The notes under the pieces are model-generated. The model was not told the origin of the DNA. It did no database searches and worked only from the letters and a program-made list of their open reading frames with translations. Both the position numbers and the translations under genes were made by a program. 56,166 bases of DNA from a virus (lineage: Duplodnaviria > Caudoviricetes). Shown here piece after piece: positions 22,901 to 56,166 of the stretch. The stretch covers positions 1-56,166 of IMG/VR virus record IMGVR_UViG_3300027969_000125. One strand, 5' to 3'. Positions within the stretch are counted from its first letter, which is position 1. Each line of letters begins with the position of its first letter.

Positions 22901-24802
22901 CCCGAAGTGTTGCCTCCTGCTCCTAAAACAGAAGAGCCTGTTCCAAATCCTTCTGAAGTTGCTCCTCCCGTTACTCCGCCTGTAGTAACCCCGCCTGTTG
23001 TAGAGCCTACTGAGGTTGAGCCTCCAGTGGTGACTCCGCCAGTTGTGACGCCTCCTGAAGTTATCTCGCCTGTCGTCACTCCGCCAGTAACACCTCCGGT
23101 AGTAACGCCGACAGTTGTTGAGCCTACTGTCATACCTCCTCCTGTCGTGCCCCCTGTAGTCACGCCTCCAGTTGTAGAGCCGCCTGTTGTCCAGCCTCCA
23201 GTCGTTTCTCCGGTAACTCAGCCTGTAGCCACTCCTCCAGTGGTCACCCCGCCAGTAACCCCTCCAGTGGTTGCACCTCCTGTCACTCCGGCAACAAGTG
23301 GGATAACTATTGATGCCGTTACAAAAGCAATCAATGATTCAATTGCAGGCATCCAGTTTCCGGCAGGCATTACGCCCGCTGATGTGGCGCAGCAAATTAA
23401 AACGGCAATGGAAGCCAATCCTAATTTGAAGATGGCTGACGTTACCAAGTCAATAACCGACTATATGTCGGCCAATCCTGCGCTTACTGCTGCTGATGTG
23501 AGCACCGCCATTACTGGTGCCACAAAAGACTTGGCAACACAAGGTCAGCTTGATTTGGCAGTAAAAAATCTGTCTGCCGACCAAAAAACACAGTTCAATA
23601 ATTTAACTCAAGCTCAAAAAGATGAAGTAGATGCTCGTGTAAAACAAGGCCAAGACATTCAAAATGCTATTGCTTCAGCACAACAAACAACAAGCAATCA
23701 AGTTCAAAATATTCAAGGCGAATTGAATGGAAGGATTGATGCTCTTGTTAAGCAAGGCGTTGATTCAAATGCTGCAATACAGCAAGCAATTGCAGAGTCG
23801 CAAACGCAAATAAATAAAAATGATGCAAACATAAACTCTAGAATTGACGTACTTGTCAATCAGGGTGTTGACTACCAAATAGCAACGCAAATAGCTCTTG
23901 AGGAAACACGAGGAACAATAGGTGATGTTGGCAAACAGCTTGCTGACAAAATAAAAGCTGATGAAGCCGACAAGCAAGCTGCGGCAGAAGCCAAAAGGGT
24001 GGCAGATGCTGCTGCGGAAGAAGAGAAGAGGGTTGCTACTGCTGCCGCGCTGGCAAAAAGCATTGCTGATAAACAAGCTGCTGCAAGGGCATCAAATGCG
24101 GCCCAACAAAAAGCTGCCGTTCAAGGTGGTTTGTCTTTGCTCCAGCAAAATCCAACGCCAGCATCAACTTTGACAAGTGCGGCAGGCGTAGCAGCCCCAC
24201 TTGCGGCCAGCTATTTGATGGCAAAAGAAGACCCTAACAAGTTTGAAAGCCCGTTGGAAAAATTCCTAAAGACGCAAAACCAAGCCTTTGGCAAAGAAAA
24301 TCAGTACGGCATACAACCACAAGGAAACGTGATGAACGACCCCTCATACTCTTACGGGACGCAGCGCCCCATTGAGGACATCCTCGGCATGGGATCGACC
24401 CAAGCGGGCCAAGCGCCCGATTCCTCCATCCCAAGCTACCCTACAGCCCTTCCTTACGCCCAAGGCGGTATGGCGGGTACTCGGCATGGCAAGTACGCCC
24501 AAGGCGGTCTAAGCACCCCTCTGATGGCCTCTGGGGGCAAGATGCGGGTGGACTTCCGCCACGGGGATGCCGTAACGGGGGCTGGAGACGGCCAATCGGA
24601 CGATATTCCCGCCATGCTGGCTGACGGGGAGTTTGTTTTCCCCGCCGATGTGGTTGCCGCCATAGGAAATGGCTCAAACAAGGCAGGAAGCGATAAACTA
24701 TACGACATGATGCACGGCATCCGCGCCCATTACCGTTCTGCCAAACCCAAGGATTTGCCACCGCAGATCAAATCCCCGCTTGATTTTCTCAAGCGCAGCT
24801 AG
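19904..24802 (+). CDS. Large internal virion / ejection protein with a Pro-Val-rich linker and a C-terminal AxGG...SDDIPAMLADGEFV module
   Basis: 1632 aa; hydrophobic Gly/Ala N-terminus, coiled coils, VTPP repeats, tape-measure-like C-terminal motif. Confidence 0.65.
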   Translation: MSLSKAVQWLGDKIGDGLRAVGDVAGDALRAVGKGIQKLGDFAGDTIKAIIKDPLPTLLSYAGMAIGIPPYVTSAVITAAKGGNLEDIAKSAAISYATTSFMSDTQIGADIKNYTTNQWAGDFTDSMMETFNLPADTAVQISKVASASLNSSLIGGINAALSGKSIATGISSGFTSGLIYSSTDSYFDSINKNPNWGLSPTTINLMKGATSTALNTIVSGKGDPAQAVGNYIAYASINMAESSLINKAKETYKSLTTNTDATEKAQAKYAAEKSEYDKQLKAAEDLRKSVNDDTAAYQKTIDDQYNPFKKQYDDLISANDVQASTFNTNKKAFEDNKWAVENYSAKLEQLGYQNIDLGEGMAVPARVTGTYVSITRGGEERTNFQYAYDAPSQQSFIDAANAAADKANAAAAKSKEIQDAATKLYNDNKPMLDSLPTKAADIDKKVADFNAIKSDIETPKDGNLAQRLQDASKDYQSNYDLWAASKSEADKSAENYTKALAEVATRDATIDAINSGVITATTQDKDGNWSLSNGMTLTKDGKFVQEGVQQFTNAAGINQKPMDLTGADGSKIDFSEDAGRLLSTSDVKNLAQRDYGLSITDEEAKKFAGKDYTETAIPELESFAATKAKEAGFPDYKAYQEFGGNVDAYKASIWKPADTTMAGGEQTAAVNTGVVSDAGVSKPVQSTGTKTFENGTTYDYSTGLFKMPDGSYRDSDYNLYNEQGKFIGLEKEGRPFRVSVTGGDVDPEKNEIIPPSRPANFVNEVDLNSAGDENTGVASPVELQGDESTGGSGPASSNDAFNKALANANTKGDTTTTVDNQPISFDNTGTVLAINGNGTALVQNDTTRSQNTVQTIGDATVGAKVDLVVSGSTGETTAIAKTETFEANNTTGASTNSASNATSTGTVLATNNDGISLVQNDATGTQSIVKTIGDVDVGSKVDIKVSASTGEATAVAKTEQPVVETPIVTPTSVTPPIVETPDVQQPITETPVTPSEVVPPEVLPPAPKTEEPVPNPSEVAPPVTPPVVTPPVVEPTEVEPPVVTPPVVTPPEVISPVVTPPVTPPVVTPTVVEPTVIPPPVVPPVVTPPVVEPPVVQPPVVSPVTQPVATPPVVTPPVTPPVVAPPVTPATSGITIDAVTKAINDSIAGIQFPAGITPADVAQQIKTAMEANPNLKMADVTKSITDYMSANPALTAADVSTAITGATKDLATQGQLDLAVKNLSADQKTQFNNLTQAQKDEVDARVKQGQDIQNAIASAQQTTSNQVQNIQGELNGRIDALVKQGVDSNAAIQQAIAESQTQINKNDANINSRIDVLVNQGVDYQIATQIALEETRGTIGDVGKQLADKIKADEADKQAAAEAKRVADAAAEEEKRVATAAALAKSIADKQAAARASNAAQQKAAVQGGLSLLQQNPTPASTLTSAAGVAAPLAASYLMAKEDPNKFESPLEKFLKTQNQAFGKENQYGIQPQGNVMNDPSYSYGTQRPIEDILGMGSTQAGQAPDSSIPSYPTALPYAQGGMAGTRHGKYAQGGLSTPLMASGGKMRVDFRHGDAVTGAGDGQSDDIPAMLADGEFVFPADVVAAIGNGSNKAGSDKLYDMMHGIRAHYRSAKPKDLPPQIKSPLDFLKRS
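22780..23290 (+). repeat. Degenerate coding repeats (VTPPV / VEPP)
   Basis: Many imperfect copies encoding VVTPP, VTPPV and VEPT. Confidence 0.85.
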
Positions 24803-40575: not shown

Positions 40576-41145
40576 ATGCCAGAAACTACCGCCAAGAAAC
40601 GGCCCAAGAAGCCACCAACAGCGCAAGGGACAACACTCACCCTGCCTGACACACCCAAGAAGACAGGACGCCCCAGCAAGTACACGCCAGAACTGGCAGC
40701 AGAGATATGCAATAGGCTTGGCACAGGAGAGCCGCTCAGGCAGATATGCAGGGATGACAGGATGCCGCACTGGACGCAGATGTATGAGTGGATAGCGCGT
40801 GACCCAGAGCTTTCCCTACGGGTCGCGCACGCGCGTGAGGCCGGTTGCGATGCCATTGCAGAGGAGTTGATCGAAATCAGCGACACGTTGCACTTTGGTG
40901 AGACGCAGGTTATGGGTGACAAGAACAGCACTACAACGGTCGCTGATATGCTTGGGCACCGCAAGCTACGCATTGAGACACGCCTGAAGTTGTTGGCCTG
41001 CTGGAACCCTGCCAAGTACGGCACCAAGGTTCAGTTGGGTGGCGATCCCAAGAATCCGCTCAAGGTAGAGGCGTCGGTGCAGGCGGACAGCTTGCTTGAG
41101 GCGCTGATCAAGAATGCCGAGTTGAAGCGTCAGGCAAATGAGTAA
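40576..41145 (+). CDS. terS: Terminase small subunit
   Basis: GRPSKYTPELAAEIC...GEPLRQIC...AREAG...KLRIETRLKLLA.WNPAKYG; upstream of terL. Confidence 0.85.
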   Translation: MPETTAKKRPKKPPTAQGTTLTLPDTPKKTGRPSKYTPELAAEICNRLGTGEPLRQICRDDRMPHWTQMYEWIARDPELSLRVAHAREAGCDAIAEELIEISDTLHFGETQVMGDKNSTTTVADMLGHRKLRIETRLKLLACWNPAKYGTKVQLGGDPKNPLKVEASVQADSLLEALIKNAELKRQANE

Positions 41146-41326
41146 GCCGCCCTTTCCTAAGAAGCAATGGGGTGAGTTCTGGACACCGCCAGTAGAAGAC
41201 GATGCGCCATTTCCCGCAGACGTTGAAATGGACTGCGACACAGGGCGCTGGCGGTACGTCATCAACCGAGAGCAATACCGCGAGGAGTTTCGCGTGTGGG
41301 AAGCTGCTGTGCTGGGGCAAGCATGA
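41138..41326 (+). CDS. Hypothetical protein
   Basis: Overlaps the terS stop and the terL start. Confidence 0.45.
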   Translation: MSKPPFPKKQWGEFWTPPVEDDAPFPADVEMDCDTGRWRYVINREQYREEFRVWEAAVLGQA

Positions 41327-43638
41327 GTGACATCATCAAGTTGCTGCAAGACCCAGAGGTCAAGCGCAGCTTTGAGCTTGCCAGCCCAGAGGTGAAGCTG
41401 GCGACGGCTTGGCGGCTTACTTGGCTAGACAAGGCGCACAACCACCAGATCCTGCCCCATGGGGATTGGTGGAGCATCTGGCTGCTGCTGGCTGGCCGTG
41501 GCGCAGGCAAGACCCGTACAGCCGCCGAGCAGATCTCTTGGTGGGCGTGGACGCATCCCGGCACCCGCTGGCTTGTGGCCGCACCTACCTCGTCCGATGT
41601 CCGTTCGACCTGCTTTGAGGGTGACTCTGGCCTGATGGCCGTCATACCCGGCGCATTGATCAAGGACTACAACAAGGCGCTGCACGAGATCTACCTGACC
41701 AACGGCAGCCTGATCAAAGGCATACCGGCATCCGAGCCAGCCCGCTTCAGGGGGCCGCAGTTCCACGGCGCTTGGCTCGATGAGTTGGCCGCTTGGGATT
41801 ACATTCAGGACGCATGGGATCAGATCCAGTTCGGCGTGCGGCTGGGCACCAAGACCCACATCATCGTCACCACGACCCCGCAGCCCAAGGACTTGATCAT
41901 CGACCTAGTTGGCCGTGACGGGGACGATGTGGTGGTCACCACCGCCTCGACGTACACCAACCTAGCCAACCTGTCAGATAACTTCAGGAAGCAGATCCTG
42001 TCCTTTGAGGGCACCAAGCTAGGCAGGCAGGAGATCTACGCCGAGATCATCGACGCCGAGGAGGGTGGAGTCGTCCAGCGCTCGATGTTCAAGCTGTGGC
42101 CTGCTGGCCGCGCCTTCCCCAAGTTCGAGTACATCCTCCAGTCCTACGATGTGGCGACCTCGGAGAAGACGCAGAACGATCCGACGGCCTGCATCACGTT
42201 CGGCGTGTTCAAGCCTCTGGACGGCCCAATGAGCGCGATGGTGATCGACTGCTGGCAGGACAGGCTCCAGTATCCCGACCTGCGCCCCAAGGTGACCGAG
42301 GAGTATGAGATAGTCTACGGCGAAGGGAAGGACAAGAAGCGGGTGGACTTGCTGCTCATTGAGGACAAGAGCGCTGGTATCAGCCTGATCCAAGACTTGC
42401 AGCGTGCCCACTTGCCGGTGAGGGCGTACAACCCCGGACGGGCGGACAAGGTGCAGCGCCTGAACATCGTCTCCAACATCATCGCCCGTGGGCGGGTGTG
42501 GATACCTGAGTCGGACAACAGGAAGGGCTACGTCAAGGATTGGGCCGAGGTGTTCGTAAGCCAGATCTGCTCGTTCCCCAACAGCACGCACGATGATTTG
42601 GTGGACGCTTGTGTTGATAGCTTGACTCAAGTGCAAATGGCTTTTGGCACAAAGGCGATCAAGGATGTTTTGGTTGGCGACATGGTGATGACCCCGGCAG
42701 GGCTTCGCAAGGTTACGGCTGTACATGACAACGGCATCAAGGAAGTTTGGAATGTCAACGGTTTACTAGCTACGGCGGAACATCAAGTAATGACGCAAGA
42801 CGGGTGGTTGCGTGTTGACTGCTTGAGTCAATCAGTCCATAATATATATCTTTACAAGGATACATCATGGTTTTCAAATCAAGCGGAAAAGTGGTTGAGT
42901 CGGTGGTCTTCAACGGTCGCAAGTACAACCGTTACCCTGAGAGCAATAACCCAGCGCACCGCCGCTACTTTGCAAGGGCTGGCAACCGGCTTCACCGAGA
43001 CGTATGGAAGCACCACAACGGGCCAATCCCTGCGGGTATGCAAATCCATCACATTGACGGCAACACGGCCAACAACGACATCGGCAACTTGGCCTGCGTC
43101 ACAAACAAGCAGCACTGGGATGAGCATAGGGCCGAGGCATCTGAGCGCAGCAAACGGCCAGAACAGCTTGCGCATCTCAACAGGATTCGGGGCAGCGCTG
43201 CCGACTGGCACCGATCAGAAGAAGGGCGGGATTGGCACAGAGAACACGCAAAGACCTCTCTGGCAAAGACTTGGGGAAAGCCTAAGTCGTACTACCCAGC
43301 CCCTTACAAATGCGTTTGGTGCGGTTTTGACGGCATTGCCAAAGTTCCTGAGCGAAAGAAGTTCTGCTCCCCCACTTGCCAAAACGCCGAATCAAAGCAC
43401 CGCCTTGGTAAGACAAGTTACGAACACCCATACCATGCGTCATGTGTTCGACTTGACAGTGGAGGGTGAACACTGCTACTACGCCAACGGAATCTTGGTT
43501 CACAACTGCACCCAAGCCCTGCGCTACCTGCGGGATGCTGGCTGGCTAGACATTGACCCACCGCCAGAGGATAGCTGGGACGAGGACGACTACGTTGACT
43601 CTGGCAAGCAGCGTAAGGGTAATCCCTATGCAGCATAG
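41323..43638 (+). CDS. terL: Terminase large subunit, intein-containing
   Basis: Walker A AGRGAGKT, Walker B AWLDE, TTTP coupling motif; nuclease motifs SYDVA, IEDKSAG and HDDLVDA interrupted by an intein. Confidence 0.93.
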   Translation: MSDIIKLLQDPEVKRSFELASPEVKLATAWRLTWLDKAHNHQILPHGDWWSIWLLLAGRGAGKTRTAAEQISWWAWTHPGTRWLVAAPTSSDVRSTCFEGDSGLMAVIPGALIKDYNKALHEIYLTNGSLIKGIPASEPARFRGPQFHGAWLDELAAWDYIQDAWDQIQFGVRLGTKTHIIVTTTPQPKDLIIDLVGRDGDDVVVTTASTYTNLANLSDNFRKQILSFEGTKLGRQEIYAEIIDAEEGGVVQRSMFKLWPAGRAFPKFEYILQSYDVATSEKTQNDPTACITFGVFKPLDGPMSAMVIDCWQDRLQYPDLRPKVTEEYEIVYGEGKDKKRVDLLLIEDKSAGISLIQDLQRAHLPVRAYNPGRADKVQRLNIVSNIIARGRVWIPESDNRKGYVKDWAEVFVSQICSFPNSTHDDLVDACVDSLTQVQMAFGTKAIKDVLVGDMVMTPAGLRKVTAVHDNGIKEVWNVNGLLATAEHQVMTQDGWLRVDCLSQSVHNIYLYKDTSWFSNQAEKWLSRWSSTVASTTVTLRAITQRTAATLQGLATGFTETYGSTTTGQSLRVCKSITLTATRPTTTSATWPASQTSSTGMSIGPRHLSAANGQNSLRISTGFGAALPTGTDQKKGGIGTENTQRPLWQRLGESLSRTTQPLTNAFGAVLTALPKFLSERSSAPPLAKTPNQSTALVRQVTNTHTMRHVFDLTVEGEHCYYANGILVHNCTQALRYLRDAGWLDIDPPPEDSWDEDDYVDSGKQRKGNPYAA
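42815..42860 (+). promoter_or_regulatory. Internal sigma70-like promoter and RBS for the nested HNH gene
   Basis: TTGACT (42815-42820), 17-bp spacer, CATAAT (42838-42843); AAGGA (42856-42860) 6 nt before the ATG at 42867. Confidence 0.7.
42867..43469 (+). CDS. HNH homing endonuclease overprinted out of frame within the intein
   Basis: LHRDVW...GPIPAGMQIHHIDGNTANNDIGNLACV...H is an HNH_3-type motif; C-terminal CxxC...FCSPTC zinc module; own RBS. Confidence 0.88.
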   Translation: MVFKSSGKVVESVVFNGRKYNRYPESNNPAHRRYFARAGNRLHRDVWKHHNGPIPAGMQIHHIDGNTANNDIGNLACVTNKQHWDEHRAEASERSKRPEQLAHLNRIRGSAADWHRSEEGRDWHREHAKTSLAKTWGKPKSYYPAPYKCVWCGFDGIAKVPERKKFCSPTCQNAESKHRLGKTSYEHPYHASCVRLDSGG

Positions 43639-44129: not shown

Positions 44130-47100
44130 ATGAACCAACGACTGACCGACATCCGCCGAGCGCAGCTTGACCAGCTTTTGTCTGGCGGTACGAACATGGC
44201 TGGTGGTGGATTGCTGAAGGCTGTGGTCAAGGCTGCCAAGCCTGCGGTCAAGGCGGTGCAGGAAGTGTTGCCGCTGGCCGAGCGTGAGGCCAACCTTGCC
44301 AAGTTCCTTGCCCCGTCAGCAGAGAAGCGCAGGATGTATCACGGCTCTAAAGAGCCAAACATCAAAGAGTTTAAAACGCGAAAAGACTTAACCGACGAGT
44401 CCCATATGACTGGGCATTATGCCGATGAGCGCGATGCTGTGTTCCTTGCCCCTGAACCAGAGTTCACCAAAAACTTTTCTCAAATGGGGTATACCGACAC
44501 ACATCAAGCGCCAACCACTTACCCTGTTTATGTGCAAGTGAAAAACCCATTTGACTTTGATAATCCAGAACATTTGCAACGGGTCAAGGACACATACCTT
44601 GATATGTATCACAACCCAGACTCAGAGTTGTATGATCCATATTTGAGTCCGTCTGAAAGGTCTACTTCACAACATTTATTCAAAAAACGTGTTGATGAAT
44701 TGCCATCAGATGTGAATAACTGGCCCAGAATTGAGAATGAAGTTTTCCAAAATGTTTTGAAAGACTTAGGGTTTGATTCTTTTTACACCCGTGAACGTGG
44801 CACTAAAAACCTTGGCGTGTACGACCCAAACCGCATCAAATCCGCCATCGGCAACCGTGGCACCTACGACACCAGCGTGCCTGACATCAACGAAGCCCAA
44901 GGCGGCTTAGTACACCTTGCTGGTGGCGGCAGGGCGAACAGCGACTACACGCTCATGGGCGCTCCCCGTCAGGACAACGAGAACAAGCCATATCCCAAGA
45001 CCGAGCGCATGAACCTTGGCGTCAAGGCGGTCAAGTCGGGGCTGGACAAGCTCAACCGCCTGATTGACACTGGCCCATCGGTTGGCAGCGTGGTAGGCAA
45101 CGTGGTCGGTGCCGTGCCATTTGTTGGCCCAGATCTACGCAAGGGGATGGAAGACTCCACCCTCACGATCCCTTACGAGTTCCAGCGCTCGGCCACGAAC
45201 CCACGGGTGGCTACTGGCGTCAACACGGCCAAGGTGCCCACGACCGACATCTTGGACGCCCTGAAGATGTCTGACCTGACTGGCGGCACTGGCGCAAGCA
45301 ACCTGCTGGGCAGCGTTGGCAAGGGCTATGTACCTAACTCAATGGATGTGCTGGACACGCTTGGCCTCGGCCTTACTGGCTATGGTGCGGCTAAGGCTGG
45401 CGTCAGGGGCGTTAAGGGCGTCAAGGATGCCTTGCTGGCAGGTAAGGAAGCAAAGGCGGCAAAGGAAATTGAAACAGCAGGAACCAAATATGCAACACAA
45501 CAAGAAGGCCCATTCTTCCGAGTCCAGCCAACAACACTTGGCAAAGACGCAGCAACAACTCGCGGAACTAAAGAAGCGGATGGGTTACGAGCCACCCCCG
45601 CTGTCGCAGGAGGAGCAGAACCAACTGGACGCAAAGTTCCGCAACTCTTATCGCCAGAGGAAGTGGGTCGAATAATTGCTGACCCAGTTGCAAATCAACC
45701 ACTGAATATTGCAAAGAAATACACGCAAGATACCCAAGGGGTTGACTTCGGTGTGCCAAAAACTCCAAGTAGTTCGTTGGCAAAGCAGTCAGGCATTGCT
45801 CGTACTTTTGATCTGGCTGTCCAAGGATCGCCTGAGTACAAGTCTGCAATCTTTGGAGCTTACAGTCGTGAGATGCCTGACCTGATGGAGCAGATCGGCG
45901 CAAAGAATTACGACGACCTGATGGAGAAGGCTTACCGTCAGATGGCAAAGGAGACTGATGATCAGTTTAAGAGACTGCCGTACAACTTCTCGTACCACCG
46001 CGCTGGTGAGGGCAATTACAACGGGGCCAAGGACATGGCCGCTGATGTGCATGGGAACAGGCACCTGTACGTTTATCAGGGTGGCGACAAGCACGACTTC
46101 TTGCACAACGTAGATCCGCAAACTGGCTTGAACGAGAACGAGAAGTTTCGCGCTGTCCATGACCTGTTGGGCCACGCCATTTACGGCAACGAGTTTGGCC
46201 CTAAGGGTGAAGAGATGGCATGGGCCGTTCACCAGCAAATGTACTCGCCCCTTGCGCGTATGGCGATGACTGCTGAGACCCGTGGACAGAACTCGGTAGT
46301 CAACTACAGCCCGCTCAATGCTAAGCTCAAGAAAACTATTGCCGAGTATGAGGGCATGAGTAACGAAGCCCGCAGGCGTGGCGACAAAGCGCTTGTAAAA
46401 GAAATTGAAGACCTCAAGCGTCAAGCCTACTCCGGGTTGGAGTTTGCTCCTAACAGGGCCGTGCTGCTGCCGCCTGAGTTTATGAATCCCCAGTTCGCTG
46501 GCGGAATGCCTTCGTACCTGAAAGCTGCAAACCTGCCAACTAAGGGAACCGAGACCGGATCGGTACTGACCCACTACAGCAACGAACCCAACCTGCAATT
46601 GATAGACCCCACAAGGTACGGCACAGGCATCAAGGGTGCGGAAGCCGGACGCCTGCGTGACCTTGAGGGTGGCGTGCGCGACCGCTCGTACTTCTACCTC
46701 GGTGAGCCGGGTACTGTTGCGCCCGAAGCTGGCCTTGGTGGCAACCGTTACCGTGGAGAGTCGTCAAGCCTGTACGACATTACCCAAGACCCGCTGGACT
46801 TTAGGTTGCTGGCCCGCGAGGCCAACCGCACGCCATTTACCGCACGGGTTAACGCAGGCGTCACTTACCCCATGCAAGAGGCCAACGACTACGAGCGTTT
46901 GGTCAAAGAGTACGGCTACGAGGGCATGATTAACCCAAACGCCACCAAGCCGATGGGTATCATGTTTGAGCCAACAAAGGTAGAGCCACGCATGGCCGGT
47001 GGTGGTTTGCTGTCCAAGCTAGGCAAGGCAGCAAAGGCTGCACGCGCTGCGGAGGAGTTGGTGCCTGCTGCTGGCCGCATGAGGTTTGCTGACCAGCCAA

Positions 47101-50100
47101 TGGGTGGCTTGAACGTCATCAAAGAGACTGGCGGCAACTGGTTGGGTGGACGGGTTGAGAAGGACGTAGCGCCATTGAGGTCAAGAGGCCCAACGCACAG
47201 GGATGAGGCATTGATGGCAGGCGGAAGGTACGCGCAAGAGGCCGACACGCCTGAAGGCATTAGAGCCATGGCCGCAAATGCCGCTCTTAACAAGTGGGTT
47301 GACGGCAACCTGTCTAACTACATCAAGAAGCAGATGGGCACGCCTGATGATCCAGTCCGTGCGCTGGCCGAGCAGGGAATTACGCACAAGGCTGATCTCC
47401 TGCGTGAAGATCAAGTTTTTGCCGACAAGCCAATAATGGATCAACGCAGGGAGGCTGGCTTCCCAGAAGAGGGCATGGCTCAATCCCCATTAGCAAAGGC
47501 TTGGGAGTACGTTTCTGATTCTTCTATTCCCTCGCACCGTGCTGGGGACATTCAGGGAATGCCGGAGAAGTTTACCAAGCGCGATGAGGCGGAGCGCAAG
47601 ATGATTGCTTTGCGAGACGCGCTGTACCATAAGTTTATTGATCATTTGAAATCAAAAGGAATTTCTGATGAGGAGGCAAATATCGTTGCCCGTGGAACTC
47701 CATTTGATTTAAAAGCCAGAGCCGTTGGAGATCAAGACTTTTTACAAGCCGAAGTAGCGTATGCGGCAACTCATGATCCGATGATGAGTTCTTACATCGC
47801 TCTTGGGCAAGAGAACCCGTGGATCTCTAAGGTTGCGCCAGAGACTCAGGTGTACTCGTCATTCACTGGCGACCTTGGCTTTGACCACATCGTTGATGTC
47901 CTCAAGCAAGACGTAGCTGAAGGCCGCATCCGCCCTGAGCAACTGAACAAGGTCAGCATGGAGCAGGCAGTGCGCCGCACCTACGAGTACGACCAAGAGA
48001 TGGCAAAGAAGATGCAGGAAGCCGCCATCAAGCAGACCGAGGGTATGCCTGTCCACAAGGAGTATCCAGAGGGCTACAAGTGGGTAGAGTTGACTGCGCC
48101 CAAAGACCTGCCAGAAGGATGGAGCGCTGAAGGCAACAACTTAATCAACCCCAATGGCGGAAGACCGGGTCAAGTTGGAGATTCTTCTGACCCGCGTTAC
48201 AAGGCGCTTGAGGACGCCCTCAAGTACGAAGGCGACACAATGGGCCACTGCGTTGGTGGCTACTGCCCTGATGTGGTGCAAGGCCGCAGCCGCATCTACA
48301 GCTTGCGTGATTCCAAGGGTGAGCCTCATGTGACTGTTGAGACAAGACCCGGAGCCTATACGCCTTTTGATATCCCGGAAGACATTAAGCCAATTTATAA
48401 ACAACACATGGTTGAGGGCATTTCAACTCATGGAGGAAGACCCGGAGCGGCAGAGTGGATGCAGCATTTTTATCCAGATAGATTTGTTGCGCCACCCGAA
48501 GATATTATTCAAATCAAAGGCAAACAGAATCGCGCACCCAAAGAAGAGTACCTGCCATTTGTGCAGGACTTTGTAAAGAGTGGCGATTGGTCTCGCATTG
48601 GTGACTTAAAGAACACTGGTCTACGAGACATTAAAAAGACTCCAAAAATTGAAGAGTACTTAAAGAAAAAGGGCGCTGATGTGCCACGGTACTTAACCGA
48701 GAATGAGTATCAAGGCCACGAGAGTGACTTCTTGATGGATCAGTTGTATCCCAAAGATGAGACGCCGTTACCGCCAGCAGAAAGCATGGCCGGTGGTGGC
48801 AGCGTTGGCCTCAAGAACGCCCTGAACAACCTACTACGCACCGACAAGCCTGAAGTGCATATGGCTGGTGGTGGCGCTATGGCTAAGGTGGCAAAAGCTG
48901 CGAAGGCGGCGTACAGTCCCAAGGTGCTTAACTCAACGATTGAAAAGTTTGTAGCAAAGATTGCCGCAGACAATCCCAAGTTGAGCGAAGAAGATGTGCT
49001 GAAGAAAGCCACAAAGCAAGCCACTAGCAAACTGGAATGGGAGCGTGTGCAAAAGCCAGAGCTGGAGAAGACATACGGCCCATTGGTAAAAACGCCTTAC
49101 TCAAAGACCAATGTCAACAAGATGCAAAACACCGCCGAGGTGGTGGCAGAACGCAAGCGCAAGGCCAACGAGTTCCTTGACCAGCCTACTGAGCCTTGGA
49201 CTCCCCCTGCGCCTGAATTGCAAGCATTTGACCGCTCGTCCATCAAGGACGCGCTTGAAGGCTTCCCCGGCGTAGAGCAGACTGCTTTTCCAAGGGATAT
49301 ACCCACACGCGCCAGCACATCTCATGTTGATGAGTTGTACGCTGACCCGGAGAATCGCGCCCTCATTGAAAAGCAAATTAAGCGTGGCCTGCCGCTTGGC
49401 GGTGAGACTTTCTACGCCTCGCTATACCCTGTGAAACAAGCGGTGCTAGAGGCGGGTATGCCTGCCGAAAAGTTTGACAGATGGATTCACTCGCTTGCGC
49501 CAGCGTCTGCCCGCAATTCCATAATGAACGAGATGGCCGTAGGGCAATTCATGCGCGACATGAACGCTAGAGGCATACCATTGACCGAAGAGAACGTGGC
49601 CCGCGAGAAGGCCGTGTACAAAGAAAAGTTTGGCATTAGCTTGCCTTTGATGCCGCTTCATCGTGAGGGCGTGGCAAAAGTAATTGAGGGCGGGCAGGAC
49701 TTGCGCGAGATGAGCAAGGCCAACATCCCAACCAATTACAAGATCCCAACATATGGTTCACAAAAGGCTGGCGACTTTGCCAACTCGGTGGTGCTTGACG
49801 TTCATGAGGCTGGAGGCCAAACGCAAGGCAGCAGGTTTCACCCGTACTTTAATGAGCAGGGCGGATTTGGCAACACCGAGTACAACGCTGGCGAACAGGG
49901 CTTGCTTGGCATTGCAGGGGATCTGGGAATCCCCGGCGGCATGGCGCAAGCTGGCCGATGGTTTGGCGGCGGAGAGTTAACGGGCCTGCGCTCACCACGG
50001 GGTGACGCCCTTGATTTGCTGGAGAAGCAAGTTGCTTACACCCTGAACAAAAAAGGCATTCAACCCAACCCGGCAAATGTCCGCGCCGAAGTGCTGCGCC

Positions 50101-50273
50101 AAATTGAAACTGGTGAGGGTGATTTGCTCCCGTGGTATCGCAAAGAAGGAATGCCCGATGTAAGGCAGACAGGTCTTCAGCGCAAAGAGGGCGGCGAAGT
50201 GACAATGGAAGGTGGCCTTACCCACTGCAAGACTAAAAAGGTAAAACGACATGGCAACACAGTTCCCCATTGA
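44130..50273 (+). CDS. Large polyvalent protein: two ART-like domains, HDxxGH domain, PcfJ-like domain, HhH-glycosylase-like domain
   Basis: 2047 aa. MYHGS...VFLA...YPVYV..KNPFD...DPNRIKSAIGNRGTYD (ART-PolyVal-like); FRAVHDLLGH...AETRGQNS; THYS...RSYFY...PEAGLG; EGDTMGHCVGGY...IYSLRD (PcfJ-like); KIPTY...VVLDVHE...AQAGRW. Confidence 0.7.
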   Translation: MNQRLTDIRRAQLDQLLSGGTNMAGGGLLKAVVKAAKPAVKAVQEVLPLAEREANLAKFLAPSAEKRRMYHGSKEPNIKEFKTRKDLTDESHMTGHYADERDAVFLAPEPEFTKNFSQMGYTDTHQAPTTYPVYVQVKNPFDFDNPEHLQRVKDTYLDMYHNPDSELYDPYLSPSERSTSQHLFKKRVDELPSDVNNWPRIENEVFQNVLKDLGFDSFYTRERGTKNLGVYDPNRIKSAIGNRGTYDTSVPDINEAQGGLVHLAGGGRANSDYTLMGAPRQDNENKPYPKTERMNLGVKAVKSGLDKLNRLIDTGPSVGSVVGNVVGAVPFVGPDLRKGMEDSTLTIPYEFQRSATNPRVATGVNTAKVPTTDILDALKMSDLTGGTGASNLLGSVGKGYVPNSMDVLDTLGLGLTGYGAAKAGVRGVKGVKDALLAGKEAKAAKEIETAGTKYATQQEGPFFRVQPTTLGKDAATTRGTKEADGLRATPAVAGGAEPTGRKVPQLLSPEEVGRIIADPVANQPLNIAKKYTQDTQGVDFGVPKTPSSSLAKQSGIARTFDLAVQGSPEYKSAIFGAYSREMPDLMEQIGAKNYDDLMEKAYRQMAKETDDQFKRLPYNFSYHRAGEGNYNGAKDMAADVHGNRHLYVYQGGDKHDFLHNVDPQTGLNENEKFRAVHDLLGHAIYGNEFGPKGEEMAWAVHQQMYSPLARMAMTAETRGQNSVVNYSPLNAKLKKTIAEYEGMSNEARRRGDKALVKEIEDLKRQAYSGLEFAPNRAVLLPPEFMNPQFAGGMPSYLKAANLPTKGTETGSVLTHYSNEPNLQLIDPTRYGTGIKGAEAGRLRDLEGGVRDRSYFYLGEPGTVAPEAGLGGNRYRGESSSLYDITQDPLDFRLLAREANRTPFTARVNAGVTYPMQEANDYERLVKEYGYEGMINPNATKPMGIMFEPTKVEPRMAGGGLLSKLGKAAKAARAAEELVPAAGRMRFADQPMGGLNVIKETGGNWLGGRVEKDVAPLRSRGPTHRDEALMAGGRYAQEADTPEGIRAMAANAALNKWVDGNLSNYIKKQMGTPDDPVRALAEQGITHKADLLREDQVFADKPIMDQRREAGFPEEGMAQSPLAKAWEYVSDSSIPSHRAGDIQGMPEKFTKRDEAERKMIALRDALYHKFIDHLKSKGISDEEANIVARGTPFDLKARAVGDQDFLQAEVAYAATHDPMMSSYIALGQENPWISKVAPETQVYSSFTGDLGFDHIVDVLKQDVAEGRIRPEQLNKVSMEQAVRRTYEYDQEMAKKMQEAAIKQTEGMPVHKEYPEGYKWVELTAPKDLPEGWSAEGNNLINPNGGRPGQVGDSSDPRYKALEDALKYEGDTMGHCVGGYCPDVVQGRSRIYSLRDSKGEPHVTVETRPGAYTPFDIPEDIKPIYKQHMVEGISTHGGRPGAAEWMQHFYPDRFVAPPEDIIQIKGKQNRAPKEEYLPFVQDFVKSGDWSRIGDLKNTGLRDIKKTPKIEEYLKKKGADVPRYLTENEYQGHESDFLMDQLYPKDETPLPPAESMAGGGSVGLKNALNNLLRTDKPEVHMAGGGAMAKVAKAAKAAYSPKVLNSTIEKFVAKIAADNPKLSEEDVLKKATKQATSKLEWERVQKPELEKTYGPLVKTPYSKTNVNKMQNTAEVVAERKRKANEFLDQPTEPWTPPAPELQAFDRSSIKDALEGFPGVEQTAFPRDIPTRASTSHVDELYADPENRALIEKQIKRGLPLGGETFYASLYPVKQAVLEAGMPAEKFDRWIHSLAPASARNSIMNEMAVGQFMRDMNARGIPLTEENVAREKAVYKEKFGISLPLMPLHREGVAKVIEGGQDLREMSKANIPTNYKIPTYGSQKAGDFANSVVLDVHEAGGQTQGSRFHPYFNEQGGFGNTEYNAGEQGLLGIAGDLGIPGGMAQAGRWFGGGELTGLRSPRGDALDLLEKQVAYTLNKKGIQPNPANVRAEVLRQIETGEGDLLPWYRKEGMPDVRQTGLQRKEGGEVTMEGGLTHCKTKKVKRHGNTVPH

Positions 50274-52785
50274 CCCTGAGTACAACCGCTTTGTAGGCGG
50301 TGAGCCTCCAGACGAAGAGACTGGCGTAGAGGTGGAGATGCCGCAACTTGACGACTCTGAGCTAGAGGAGCTTCCTGACGGCTCTGTCGTCGTCCACATG
50401 ACCACCAAGGGGCCACGCGAGGACGAAGACTTTTACGAGAACTTGGCCGACAGCGACGACTTCAACACGATGGACATCGACACGCTGGCCCTGCGCTACA
50501 TAGAGCTGGTGGAGAAGGACAAGGAAGCCCGCAAGCAGCGCGACAAGCAGTACGAAGAGGGCATCAAACGCACTGGCATGGGCAATGACGCCCCCGGCGG
50601 AGCCAATTTCAACGGCGCTTCAAAGGTCGTTCATCCGGTGATGGCTGAGGCTTGCATCGACTTTGCCTCCCGCGCCATCAAAGAGATGTTCCCACCTGAT
50701 GGCCCGACCCGCACCAAGATATTGGGTGACGTCACGGACGAAAAAACCGCCGTGGCCGAGCGCAAATCAGAGTACATGAACTGGCAGTTGACTGAGCAGA
50801 TCGAGGAATTCCGCGACGAGCAGGAGCAGATGCTCACCCAGCTACCGCTTGGCGGCTCTCAGTACATCAAGCTGTGGTACGACGAGAAAAAGAAGCGCCC
50901 CTGCGCCCAGTTCCTGCCAATCGACAACGTGCTTTTGCCCTACGCAGCGGGCAACTTCTACACCGCACAGCGCGTGACCGAGGTCGATGACATCTCCGAC
51001 TGGGAATACAAGCGCCGCATCGCCTCTGGGATGTACCGCGACACGCCGTTTTCCCGCTCAACGATGGATCCTGAGATGACCGCCTCACAAAAGGCAACCA
51101 ACAAGATCGAAGGCAAGTCCATTGACAACAACGAAGACGGCCTACGCCGCGTGTATCACATCTACACATGGCTGGAACTGGACGACGACAAGTTCTCTGG
51201 CGGCGAATCGGCTCCCTACATCCTGATGATCGACGATTTGTCGTCCGAAGTCATTGGCTTGTACCGCAACTGGGAAGAAGGCGACGACACGATGACCAAA
51301 TTGGACTGGGTTATCGAGTTCAAATTTATTCCGTGGCGTGGTGCCTATGCCGTGGGCCTGCCCCAACTCATTGGAGGGCTATCTGCGGCCCTTACAGGCG
51401 CTCTACGGGCCTTGCTGGACTCTGCCCACATCAACAATGCGGCCACGTTGCTCAAATTGAAGGGCGGCAAGGTCTCTGGACAGTCGCAAGAGGTTGAAGT
51501 CACGCAAGTGGTGGAGATTGAAGGCGCTCCGGGCGTGGACGATGTGCGCAAACTGGCGATGCCAATGCCATTTAACCCGCCCAGCCCCGTCCTGTTCCAG
51601 CTTTTGGGCTGGCTGACGGGCGCAGCCAAGGGCGTGGTGACCACGGCAGAGGAAAAGATTGCTGATGTGAACGCCAACGCACCTGTGGGCACCACTCAGG
51701 CGCTCATTGAGCAGGGTGCAGCGGTGTTTTCGGCCATCCACGCACGTTTGCACGAGTCTCAGGGCCGTGTGTTAAAGGTTTTGAGCCGCATCAACCGTTG
51801 GTACTTGGACGATATGCGCCGTGGCGAGGTGGTAGAGGATCTGGAGGTCACCCGCGAGGACTTTTCTCGTGTGACGGACGTTATCCCCGTCTCTGACCCG
51901 CACATCTTCTCTGAAACGCAGCGCATGGCCCAAACTCAGGCTGTGATGACGATGATGGAGAAGAATCCTGAGCTATTTAACAAGAAAGTGGTCATTGAGC
52001 GCTTCCTAAAGCAGATCAAGGTGCCCGGCATCAACGAATTGATGGTCGATACGCCTGCGCCGGTCAAGATTGACGCCGCCAACGAGAACGTGGCGATGGC
52101 TATGGGCCAAGCGGCCTACGCCTACATCGAGCAGGATCACCTTGCCCACATCCAAGTCATCTTGGACTTCGCTACCAACCCTGCGCTGGGTGCAAACCCC
52201 GCCATTGCGCCTACCTACCTGCCACGGGCAATGGATCACATCAAGCAGCACTTGACCTTGTGGTACTTGAACCGCATGAACGGCTATGTGGATATGTCGA
52301 TGGAAGGCGCTACGGAAGACTACGAGATGGCAAAGCAGCCAGCCAAGATCGACAAGCTGTTCTCGGCGGTATCGCAGCACGTTCGCATGGACAGCGACGA
52401 GGCATTGCAAAAGGTCATGCCGATGATCCAGCAGATGATGCAGCAGTTGCAGCAGTCCCAGCCCCAGCCCCCGATGGCACCAGACACCAAGGTGTTGCTG
52501 GACACCAGCATGGCCGAGACGCAGCGCCGCACCCAGCGCGACCAAGCGGAGATGGGACTCAAGGAGAAGGAGTTGCAGGCCAAGGTCGAGATGGACATGA
52601 GGAAGCTGGAGCAGCAGCGCCAGTTGGACATGGAAGACTTGCAGCTACGCCTTGCCATCGCCGAGGGCGACCAAGAGACCAAACAACGCATCGAGACAGC
52701 ACGCTTAACGCGAGATGCGGCAAAGCTCAATTTTGAGCAGAACCAAGCTGTACAAACCCAAGGAGTACCTTATGGCAACCAGTGA
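50251..52785 (+). CDS. Portal protein (P22-like)
   Basis: 844 aa; GASKVVHPVMAEAC, YMNWQL, LRALLDSAHINN, APVGTTQALIEQG; Gln-rich coiled-coil C-terminus. Confidence 0.88.
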   Translation: MATQFPIDPEYNRFVGGEPPDEETGVEVEMPQLDDSELEELPDGSVVVHMTTKGPREDEDFYENLADSDDFNTMDIDTLALRYIELVEKDKEARKQRDKQYEEGIKRTGMGNDAPGGANFNGASKVVHPVMAEACIDFASRAIKEMFPPDGPTRTKILGDVTDEKTAVAERKSEYMNWQLTEQIEEFRDEQEQMLTQLPLGGSQYIKLWYDEKKKRPCAQFLPIDNVLLPYAAGNFYTAQRVTEVDDISDWEYKRRIASGMYRDTPFSRSTMDPEMTASQKATNKIEGKSIDNNEDGLRRVYHIYTWLELDDDKFSGGESAPYILMIDDLSSEVIGLYRNWEEGDDTMTKLDWVIEFKFIPWRGAYAVGLPQLIGGLSAALTGALRALLDSAHINNAATLLKLKGGKVSGQSQEVEVTQVVEIEGAPGVDDVRKLAMPMPFNPPSPVLFQLLGWLTGAAKGVVTTAEEKIADVNANAPVGTTQALIEQGAAVFSAIHARLHESQGRVLKVLSRINRWYLDDMRRGEVVEDLEVTREDFSRVTDVIPVSDPHIFSETQRMAQTQAVMTMMEKNPELFNKKVVIERFLKQIKVPGINELMVDTPAPVKIDAANENVAMAMGQAAYAYIEQDHLAHIQVILDFATNPALGANPAIAPTYLPRAMDHIKQHLTLWYLNRMNGYVDMSMEGATEDYEMAKQPAKIDKLFSAVSQHVRMDSDEALQKVMPMIQQMMQQLQQSQPQPPMAPDTKVLLDTSMAETQRRTQRDQAEMGLKEKELQAKVEMDMRKLEQQRQLDMEDLQLRLAIAEGDQETKQRIETARLTRDAAKLNFEQNQAVQTQGVPYGNQ

Positions 52786-52918: not shown

Positions 52919-53100
52919 AAACCCTTGGCGATCTGATCGGCGGGATTAAGTCTAAGCAGGTAGCAATAGCTGCGTCCCTTGCTGCTGGAAATGCGGCGAA
53001 CTGGGAGACTTATCAACGCATGGTTGGGCATTATTTTGGATTGCAAGAATCCCTTGACATCCTTAACGACTTAATGAAAGAAACAGATGAAAATGAATGA
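52915..53100 (+). CDS. Small conserved head-module protein
   Basis: LAAGNAANWETYQRMVG...GL; typical gene between portal and GroES-like gene. Confidence 0.6.
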   Translation: MKTLGDLIGGIKSKQVAIAASLAAGNAANWETYQRMVGHYFGLQESLDILNDLMKETDENE

Positions 53101-53524
53101 CCCGGTAGCTTTTAACGAAGCTGACGTAGCTTGGGCTTTTCCGAGCGTAGACCCCGGCGCAAAACCCCTTGGCGGACGCATCTTGGTGCAACTCCGTCGT
53201 GCAAAGCAGAAGACAACTAGCGCGGGAATCATATTGGTTGAAGAAACCAAAGAAACCGAAAAGTGGCAGAACATGGTGGCAAAGGTCATAGAGATCGGCC
53301 CACTGGCGTTCAAACACCGCGACACCATGCAACCGTGGCCCGAAGGGTCGTGGATTGAGGTTGGCGAATACATCCGCGTACCCAAATGGGGCGGAGATCG
53401 TTGGGAGGTGCCTATTCCGGGCGCTGATGACCACGAAGACCCAGCTTTATTCATGGTGCTAAACGATCACGAGGTGATCGCAAAGCTAACTGGTGACCCA
53501 CTTGCTATGAAAGCGTTTATCTAA
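53087..53524 (+). CDS. GroES-like co-chaperonin
   Basis: KPLGGRILVQ...TSAGIIL...AKVIEIGP...VGEYI...LNDHEVIA. Confidence 0.8.
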   Translation: MKMNDPVAFNEADVAWAFPSVDPGAKPLGGRILVQLRRAKQKTTSAGIILVEETKETEKWQNMVAKVIEIGPLAFKHRDTMQPWPEGSWIEVGEYIRVPKWGGDRWEVPIPGADDHEDPALFMVLNDHEVIAKLTGDPLAMKAFI

Positions 53525-55614: not shown

Positions 55615-56166
55615 ATGGCAGCACCAATGCGCAGTACGGACTTTAGAAGCATCGTTGAACCAATTATGAACGAGTGCTTCGATGGAGTCTATGATCAACG
55701 TACCGACGAATGGTCACGGGTTTTCCGTGAGCAAGACGGTATTCCCCGCAACTACCACGAAGAGCCTGTCCTTTATGGATTTGGCGCAGCGCCTCAACTG
55801 CCTGACGGAACTCCTGTTTCGTACCAGCAGGGCGGCGTACTCTTCTTGCAACGCTATGTGTACAACGTGTATGGCTTGGCCTTCGCGTTGACCAAAGTGT
55901 TGGTTGAAGATGGCGACCACATCCGCATCGGTCAGGTTTATGCTCGTCACTTGGCTCAGTCTCTCATCGAGACCAAAGAGACTCTGTGCGCGAACATCAT
56001 CAATCGTGCTTTCAACAGCGCCTACCCCGGCGGCGATGGCGTGTCTTTGATTAACACATCCCATCCCATCGTGAACGGCACGTTCAGCAACCAGTTGTCT
56101 ACCGCCGCTAATCTGAGCCAGACTTCTCTGGAGCAGATGCTGATTCAGATCCGCCAAGCTGTGGAT
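55615..56166 (+). CDS. Major capsid protein, N-terminal part (runs off the end, continues at the window start)
   Basis: AAGGAG RBS; MAAPMRSTDFRSIVEP...EEPVLYGFGAAP...YGLAFALTKVLVED...LAQSLIETKE; open to the end of the window. Confidence 0.88.
   Translation, partial: MAAPMRSTDFRSIVEPIMNECFDGVYDQRTDEWSRVFREQDGIPRNYHEEPVLYGFGAAPQLPDGTPVSYQQGGVLFLQRYVYNVYGLAFALTKVLVEDGDHIRIGQVYARHLAQSLIETKETLCANIINRAFNSAYPGGDGVSLINTSHPIVNGTFSNQLSTAANLSQTSLEQMLIQIRQAVD
56036..56166. repeat. Terminal overlap, copy 2
   Basis: Matches positions 1-131 with one mismatch. Confidence 0.95.

Follow-up and report, generated by a model that had tools for sequence, protein, structure and literature searches.

Phage T4 packages the ADP-ribosyltransferase Alt in its head and injects it together with its DNA. 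Entry of proteins into the T4 prohead is specified by a short peptide. This capsid targeting sequence stands at the N-end and attaches to the scaffolding core; the prohead protease cuts it off after Glu. In encapsulins, Family 1 cargo carries a loading peptide with the consensus SDGSLGIGSLKRS, and some Family 2 cargos have a motif in a disordered interdomain stretch that is repeated at the C-end and is proposed to be a targeting sequence (Andreas and Giessen 2021, PMC8346489). Iyer et al. (2017, PMC5512222), who also describe T4 Alt, proposed that polyvalent proteins are packaged and delivered with the DNA. Open questions in the field are what marks these giant, fast-changing proteins out for packaging and how they exchange modules. 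Here, we analyzed one such gene in the virus record IMGVR_UViG_3300027969_000125 (Duplodnaviria; Caudoviricetes), the window being the whole 56,166-bp record, for which CheckV gives a completeness of 100%. The gene (44130 to 50273, plus strand) is a real open reading frame (ORF) in the slot between the large terminase and portal genes and encodes a protein of 2047 amino acids (aa), P0001. This protein is modular and is jointed by a short glycine motif, MAGGG or a variant of it; relatives are split, fused, and recombined at the same motif, which is shared across the phage lineage. The best explanation, held with modest confidence, is that P0001 is a row of fused cargo units that carry a Gly-Gly (GG) tag for incorporation into the virion.

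Like the polyvalent proteins of PMC5512222, which are mosaic, lie among virion genes, and join disparate effector-type domains in one polypeptide, P0001 combines at least two disparate domains, and its gene has virion genes as neighbors, between terminase and portal. It contains ART-PolyVal and PcfJ-like domains, and LPD23, DUF7178, and GDSL lipase domains occur in its relatives. Domain content and proposed delivery fit the framework of Iyer et al. as set out in the available text of that paper. That text contains none of the words "linker," "glycine," and "PcfJ" and describes neither a shared joint or tail signature nor its occurrence in other likely virion proteins. A search of the full-text literature for MAGGG gave no phage paper among the matches listed.

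P0001 contains MAGGG at 44196, 46992, 48786, and 48861, LAGGG at 44916, EAQGG at 44892, FAGG at 46494, and RKEGG at 50181, all exactly where the initial annotation had placed them. Four copies of MAGGG compare with a mean of 0.005 in shuffled sequences, and none of 20,000 shuffles reached four. The same held for the five copies of [ML]AGGG (0.019 expected; 0 of 20,000 shuffles), and the looser pattern [MFYLIK][AK].GG, with five copies against 0.88 expected, was equaled in 43 of 20,000 shuffles. Two AlphaFold2 models (A and B), of residues 1-1000 and 950-2047, were built on alignments of 103 and 76 sequences. They contain confident modules at residues 50-255, 450-954, 995-1543, and 1597-2016, and stretches with a predicted local distance difference test (pLDDT) score below 50 make up 16.5% of residues, a share to which thin alignment columns may contribute in part, rather than true disorder. 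All five xAGGG sites lie in linkers of pLDDT below 50 at module edges, and EAQGG and RKEGG likewise fall within low-confidence stretches. FAGG (46494 to 46505; residues 789-792) lies inside the fold at residues 450-954, at pLDDT 98, and G791 and P794 are almost invariant in homologues; FAGG is therefore not a linker. The claim of the initial annotation that the motifs stand at domain borders is thus borne out by structure prediction for all of them except FAGG. The same annotation described a similar basic helix after three motifs. Lys/Ala stretches are present in the sequence at those places, and AlphaFold2 predicts helices after the first two (residues 29-43, pLDDT below 50, and residues 959-977, pLDDT 63-70) and none after the third. 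ART and PcfJ-like domains gave Pfam matches above the cutoffs.

Coordinates of the parts of P0001 are given in order, all on the plus strand. Linker 1 (44181 to 44270; residues 18-47; pLDDT below 50) holds MAGGG at 44196 to 44210, followed by the Lys/Ala stretch LLKAVVKAAKPAVKA. Module 1 (44277 to 44894; residues 50-255) is a polyvalent-type ADP-ribosyltransferase (ART), as indicated by Pfam ART-PolyVal PF18760 at residues 68-245 (40.3 bits, cutoff 31.2) and by an ART-like fold; the sequence YHGS occupies residues 69-72. The fold is PARP/tankyrase-like (Z 7.3-7.7), and its matches, to PARP, tankyrase, MbcT, and AcrIF11-like structures, are weak (Z 6.7-7.7; Foldseek E 0.007-0.5). Linker 2 (44892 to 45152; residues 255-341; pLDDT below 50) carries EAQGG at 44892 and LAGGG at 44916. 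Another linker, Gly/Lys-rich and without xAGGG (45249 to 45476; residues 374-449; pLDDT below 50), is also a breakpoint zone. Module 3 (45477 to 46991; residues 450-954) is large and conserved, belongs to phrog_3170, and has a pLDDT mostly above 95; its matches in the ESM Atlas were viral hypothetical clusters only. In linker 3 (46992 to 47111; residues 955-994; pLDDT below 50 in model B and 63-70 in model A), MAGGG is followed by LLSKLGKAAKAARAAEE.

Module 4 (47112 to 48758; residues 995-1543) is PcfJ-like. Pfam PF14284 (PcfJ) matches residues 1363-1407 at 26.5 bits (cutoff 25), a partial match that covers profile positions 76-122 of 147, and PcfJ-like proteins in BFVD match the module at an E value of 4e-26. 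Linker cassette 4 (48759 to 48917; residues 1544-1596) consists of MAGGG at 48786, a helix LKNALNNLL, KPEVH, a second MAGGG at 48861, and then AMAKVAKAAKAA. The pLDDT is below 50 at residues 1544-1559 and 1570-1590, and the same cassette is found in homologues. Module 5 (48918 to 50177; residues 1597-2016) is helical. It is followed by the C-terminal tail (50178 to 50270; residues 2017-2047), which begins RKEGGEVTMEGG, represents the GG signature in its terminal copy, and shares its last codons with the start of the portal gene. No convincing fold in the PDB was found for module 3, 4, or 5 (Foldseek, none at an E value of 0.001 or less; VIA Z below 8) in searches that used long multidomain models.

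The ends of homology cluster at these joints. Searches gave 901 relatives of P0001 near its own length (120 listed), 5,924 representative matches to residues 1-957 (150 listed), and 517 shorter matches to residues 955-2047 (120 listed). When P0001 was compared by BLASTP with 374 homologues, 216 of 519 homology breakpoints lay within 20 residues of an xAGGG site, a zone that covers 7.8% of positions; these breakpoints are counted from related sequences and are not independent events. Homology stretches in the representative search start or end at residues 21-33, 259-270, 438-453, and 951-957, and 32 homology ends fall in the query bin 260-279, in linker 2. What lies next to a given module varies as well. 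There are 13 flank clusters after the ART module in 34 homologues, 27 downstream of module 3 in 78, 12 before module 5 in 60, and 15 after module 5 in 69. Across 80 portal-centered loci (portal identity, 72-98%), the gene or genes in the slot between terminase and portal vary widely, even where portals are at least 96% identical. A first-pass scan of loci intact at the 5' end found ORFs of 386 to 2451 aa upstream of the portal, the shortest and motif-free of which may be the terminase gene itself.

Recombination joints of a related kind are found in T-even tail fiber adhesins, where they consist of conserved Gly-rich motifs and His boxes. Those motifs likewise flank variable segments and mediate module swapping. 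They are, however, structural parts of a folded adhesin, whereas the joints of P0001 are disordered and lie between whole enzymes.

Split and fused forms of the slot gene meet at the same motif. The slot holds two genes in loci L078, L082, L084, L088, and L089, and L083 has the same layout. In the first five of these loci, gene 1 ends in PFKQGGLAAIKRSR or FKQGGLAAIKRSR directly before the stop codon, or in a close variant. Its last codons carry the Shine-Dalgarno-like sequence AAGAGGAG or AAGGGGAA, and there is an overlap between its stop codon and the start codon (ATG) of gene 2, which begins MPSVPAGAKEAAKTRLKRLL. Loci L055 and L058 are likewise split, after MKRGGRVKLGALSLAH. In L065, a gene 1 tail, ASQGMKRGG, is fused to the gene 2 tail of L058, AITKSPTKGKKR. 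This joint lies within AAACG(T/C)GGTGGC, the codons for K-R-G-G, and it is there that 92% identity between the two loci resumes and continues through the portal gene. The break in L014 is of another kind: a frameshift interrupts the PcfJ module away from any motif. Breakpoints, varied neighbors, split-gene forms, and one crossover at GG codons together support the proposal, made in the initial annotation, that the GG motifs mark domain borders and act as domain-shuffling joints, and they support it at nucleotide resolution.

Because the motif starts with Met, its in-frame ATG might itself be an internal start from which modules are also made as shorter products. The ATG stands exactly at the module start in four joints, split relatives use this position as a genuine start preceded by a ribosome-binding site, and AAAGGTAGAG upstream of M955 resembles AAAAGGTAAAAC of the portal gene. 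Crude Shine-Dalgarno scores do not set these codons apart, since the four motif ATGs score 3 or 4 and the 59 in-frame internal ATGs score 2 to 5, whereas 32 of 38 true gene starts score 4 or 5. The fifth joint has CTT instead of ATG, and its score is 5. Nested genes are a very improbable account of the motif. Internal ribosome-binding sites as such were rejected as a candidate: no clear Shine-Dalgarno sequence precedes the motif ATGs, which score no better than other internal ATGs.

The codons of the motif raise another possibility. Three of the five motifs in the ORF (at 44199, 44919, and 48864, within MAGGG or LAGGG codons) spell GCTGGTGG, the Chi sequence of Escherichia coli. All seven copies of GCTGGTGG in the genome are on the plus strand. 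Chance predicts 3.3 for the two strands together, and a count of at least 7 came up in 1 of 100 shuffles. A recombination hotspot of this type would be one alternative; a chaperone handle, in which the motif mimics the GroES mobile loop and recruits GroEL, would be another, suggested by a GroES-like gene with the sequence TSAGIILVEE three genes downstream. The Chi spelling occurs in four of five motif copies in the near-identical locus L001 and in only 1 of 11 copies in L002 to L007. For the handle, V at position +2 alone is conserved, and there is no hydrophobic triplet. We find these two ideas hardly credible as explanations of the motif. A Chi site as a general feature was rejected, as more distant relatives use other codons, and the likeness to the GroES mobile loop was set aside as too loose.

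The same GG pattern extends through the relatives of P0001. Their joints read xGGxV[HKR]-[ML]AGGG-LLKAxxKAxK, or PFAxGGxV, PYKKGGKV, RYAHGGEVHMAAGG, and similar forms. In 1615 deduplicated GG contexts, M, K, or Y is enriched at position -3, A or K at -2, and V at +2. MAGGG represents the form that a signature shared across the lineage, [M/F/Y/K]-[A/K]-x-G-G-x-V, takes in P0001. Relatives use different codons for the motif, which indicates that conservation acts at the protein level. The signature is also found at protein ends. Stand-alone module 5 proteins end in KKGGxV plus about 10 aa, and a GG lies within the last 32 aa of 56 of 76 last-slot proteins, corresponding to 46 of 63 distinct tails. 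In DSL-LC04, whose slot protein has a single module, three motif copies lie in the first 70 aa.

We also found the motif in proteins other than those of the slot. A GG-repeat protein, P0380 (1541 to 2452, plus strand; 303 aa, with 54 Gly and 42 Lys), contains 12 copies of [MFYLK][AK]xGG. Its ESM Atlas model is disordered (pLDDT 0.44), and its matches in that atlas were viral hypothetical clusters only. The protein is present in all 37 related loci that reach far enough and looks like a core gene of the clade; in a tblastn search of cultured and deposited phages, MW202545 was its sole match. Three further copies, YAQGG, YAQGG, and MASGG (24455 to 24538, plus strand), lie near the C-end of a putative ejection protein of 1632 aa (19904 to 24802). 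The first gene of the putative ejection cluster has the motif at the same place in three genomes, including MW202545 and DSL-LC04, the latter with three copies. These two, the nearest records found, are metagenome assemblies. MW202545 carries 10 copies in its repeat protein, 4 in its slot protein, and 4 in the protein at the ejection-cluster position. In the same phage (L009), a 171-aa protein encoded at 18553 to 19068, just upstream of the tail adaptor gene, has the C-end FKKGGKV, so that small head-tail proteins may carry the tag too.

Phages outside this lineage give the opposite picture. No motif copies are present in the module 3 relatives of Rhodococcus phage E3 (gp205) and Mycobacterium phage Alice. 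Caulobacter phage RW has neither a slot gene nor a repeat gene; a tRNA gene alone stands at the slot position, and 11 of its head-module genes gave no motif match. At the level of sequence, the GG signature goes with the phage lineage rather than with the modules.

These distributions bear on a simpler account, in which the motifs are passive, that is, Gly-rich flexible spacers and recombination scars retained by descent with no recognition function. Such an account would explain why the linkers are low-confidence, Gly-rich, and variable and why the crossover maps within motif codons. It does not predict that specific flanking residues are conserved across the 1615 contexts though codons vary, nor that the signature occurs in unrelated phage proteins and at the termini of single-module proteins, where a spacer is needless. 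The terminal position in single-module proteins, the multiplicity of copies, and the sharing with other likely internal virion proteins all point away from plain linkers, and we regard purely passive linkers as quite improbable.

Precursors of adenovirus and African swine fever virus undergo Gly-Gly processing by clan CE proteases. The adenovirus protease recognizes the consensus (M/L/I)XGG-X, with which (M/L)AGG-G agrees. The initial annotation had proposed that P0001 is a polyprotein that is packaged in the head and cut into separate enzymes; in the form weighed here, the full-length protein would be packaged and cut at (M/L)AGG-G. Recurrent sites that fit the consensus do lie in exposed linkers of P0001, and the same modules exist both as separate genes and fused, which implies that the separate products are functional. 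Adenovirus and African swine fever virus are, however, eukaryotic viruses, and in this complete 56-kb genome none of seven protease Pfam families (S78, S49, ClpP, S77, MPTase-PolyVal, C48, and C5) matched at an E value of 1 or less. No peptidase domain was detected in P0001 or in five diverse homologues, and the models contained no protease-like fold. The capsid protein, at 304 aa, has no room for a delta domain, and the scaffold-like protein is separate. This head layout is typical of phages without a prohead protease. Moreover, the motif stands at the extreme ends of single-module relatives and occurs 12 times in the repeat protein of 303 aa; cleavage at such positions would set free no more than short peptides. 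The available text of PMC5512222 proposes that polyvalent proteins are processed by their own peptidase domains, specifically an in-built zincin-like peptidase (MPTase), whereas this genome has no MPTase match. A divergent or host protease is possible, but cutting into separate enzymes did not hold up as the leading interpretation, and we now think it unlikely.

We instead favor the reading that P0001 consists of fused cargo units bearing a virion-incorporation tag. The cargo gene would have arisen by end-to-end fusion of once-separate cargo genes, some of which are still separate in relatives. Each unit would start with Met-Ala, followed by a Lys/Ala-rich helix, and would end in a short tail with [K/F/Y/M]-[A/K]-x-G-G-x-V, so that xGGxVH-MAGGG-LLKAxxKAAK may be read as a place where one unit's tail runs directly into the beginning of the following unit. 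We infer that the GG signature serves as an address or anchoring tag that brings proteins to the capsid interior. The terminase-portal slot would then be a plug-and-play site, from which any tagged module could be loaded into the head and delivered with the DNA, and conserved motif codons could supply microhomology for module exchange.

The closest parallel to such a proposed tag is found in the targeting peptides of encapsulins, and the T4 capsid targeting sequence is another. As in a targeting peptide, the signature is short, conserved, placed at a terminus or in a disordered linker, and common to otherwise unrelated putative cargo. Cargo of encapsulins, whose shell has the HK97 fold, carries short Gly-containing terminal peptides (PMC8346489, in its available text), which tails of the present loci, among them GGLAAIKRSR and GGLSSIK, resemble. 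Unlike an encapsulin, a tailed-phage capsid is filled with DNA and has a portal and a scaffold, and the likeness is short and could be chance. The tag differs from that of T4 in being Gly-Gly based, repeated, and often C-terminal, and no protease was found here.

Packaging of P0001 in the head is plausible, given its terminase-portal position, an ART-like fold in cyanophage A4, and a relative in phage E3. The E3 relative, gp205, which matches module 3, is annotated "structural protein." In the A4 pre-ejectosome (PDB 9k3a), residues 949-1605 of chain B match the ART module with a Foldseek probability of 0.99 and an E value of 0.019 (VIA Z 7.7; root mean square deviation, 4.2; 152 aligned), a weak fold match. 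That assembly is described as capsid internal with an ordered pentameric core, chain B being a large chain (PMC12002296, in its available text). The A4 region may serve as a structural precedent for packaging such a domain.

Several points weigh against the tag reading. The Met at the joints fits internal translation starts or a protease site equally well, and the N-ends of stand-alone proteins (MA or MP plus a basic helix) only moderately resemble MAGGG plus helix. Twenty of the 76 last-slot proteins lack a GG in the tail and have other conserved tails, such as AALAALGYSASSMA and SGLSMASNE. Two breakpoint zones, at residues 380-450 and 1130-1230, contain no xAGGG in P0001, and the dependence among the counted breakpoints has been noted above. 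Complex prediction with linker 935-995 against the capsid and scaffold-like proteins and portal residues 560-844 gave no answer (score 0.00); this linker is not the best example of a C-terminal tail, and the result speaks neither for nor against binding.

The gene order around P0001 is small terminase (terS, 40576 to 41145), large terminase (terL, 41296 to 43638), slot gene, and portal gene (50251 to 52785, plus strand; phrog_1216), the stop of P0001 and the start of the portal gene sharing 23 nucleotides. On the 3' side of the portal gene follow the GroES-like gene, a gene for a charged scaffold-like protein of 311 aa, genes for proteins of 180 and 190 aa, and the capsid gene. The GroES-like gene (53087 to 53524, between portal and scaffold; Cpn10 match, E value 9e-7), in which TSAGIILVEE is mobile-loop-like, is kept in relatives including Caulobacter phage RW, DSL-LC04, and CRP-902. 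The capsid gene is divided over the record ends (55615 to 56166 and 6 to 494), and about 42 of its codons (VSLINTS...QAVD) are duplicated at both ends; this overlap indicates a circular assembly, despite the classification of the record as linear. The large terminase has 780 aa, compared with about 470 to 480 aa in most relatives, and gave subthreshold Intein_splicing and Hint matches at residues 439-737. The extra length and these matches make an intein probable. In one relative, L057, the terminase has 768 aa.

Three other observations concern the proteins described above. Linker 2 includes a Gly/Val-rich hydrophobic stretch, VGSVVGNVVGAVPFVG (about 45090 to 45200; residues 320 to 355, approximately), which could be membrane active. 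In the 1632-aa putative ejection protein, the stretch SDDIPAMLADGEFVFPADVV lies just past the three GG motifs, at 24539 to 24802, without placement in a family. The PcfJ-like core (approximately residues 1308 to 1499, or 48051 to 48626), which contains GHCVGGYC, is weakly GNAT-like, with fold matches to HAT1, ESCO1, and many GNATs (VIA Z 5.5-7.6; Foldseek probability for ESCO1, 0.57). This weak likeness offers a clue to what PcfJ-like proteins may do.

Taken beyond this one gene, the data suggest a broader picture that we offer tentatively, as a possibility short of an even chance. A widespread clade of podophages with genomes of about 56 kb would use a GG peptide as an address system for the capsid interior, similar to encapsulin tags. 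The tag would be carried by the GG-repeat protein, the putative ejection protein, and the slot modules, and the tagged enzymes, separate or fused, would be packaged and injected. Such a system would explain both module turnover and fusion and fission exactly at the tag. Whatever its function, the motif is a sequence-defined handle that coincides with natural points of fusion, fission, and recombination. If it were a cleavage site, it would point to an unrecognized protease. If it is a loading tag, it would offer a means of putting foreign proteins into phage capsids, would make phage effector delivery directly testable, and would give a rule for finding injected proteins in metagenomic phages.

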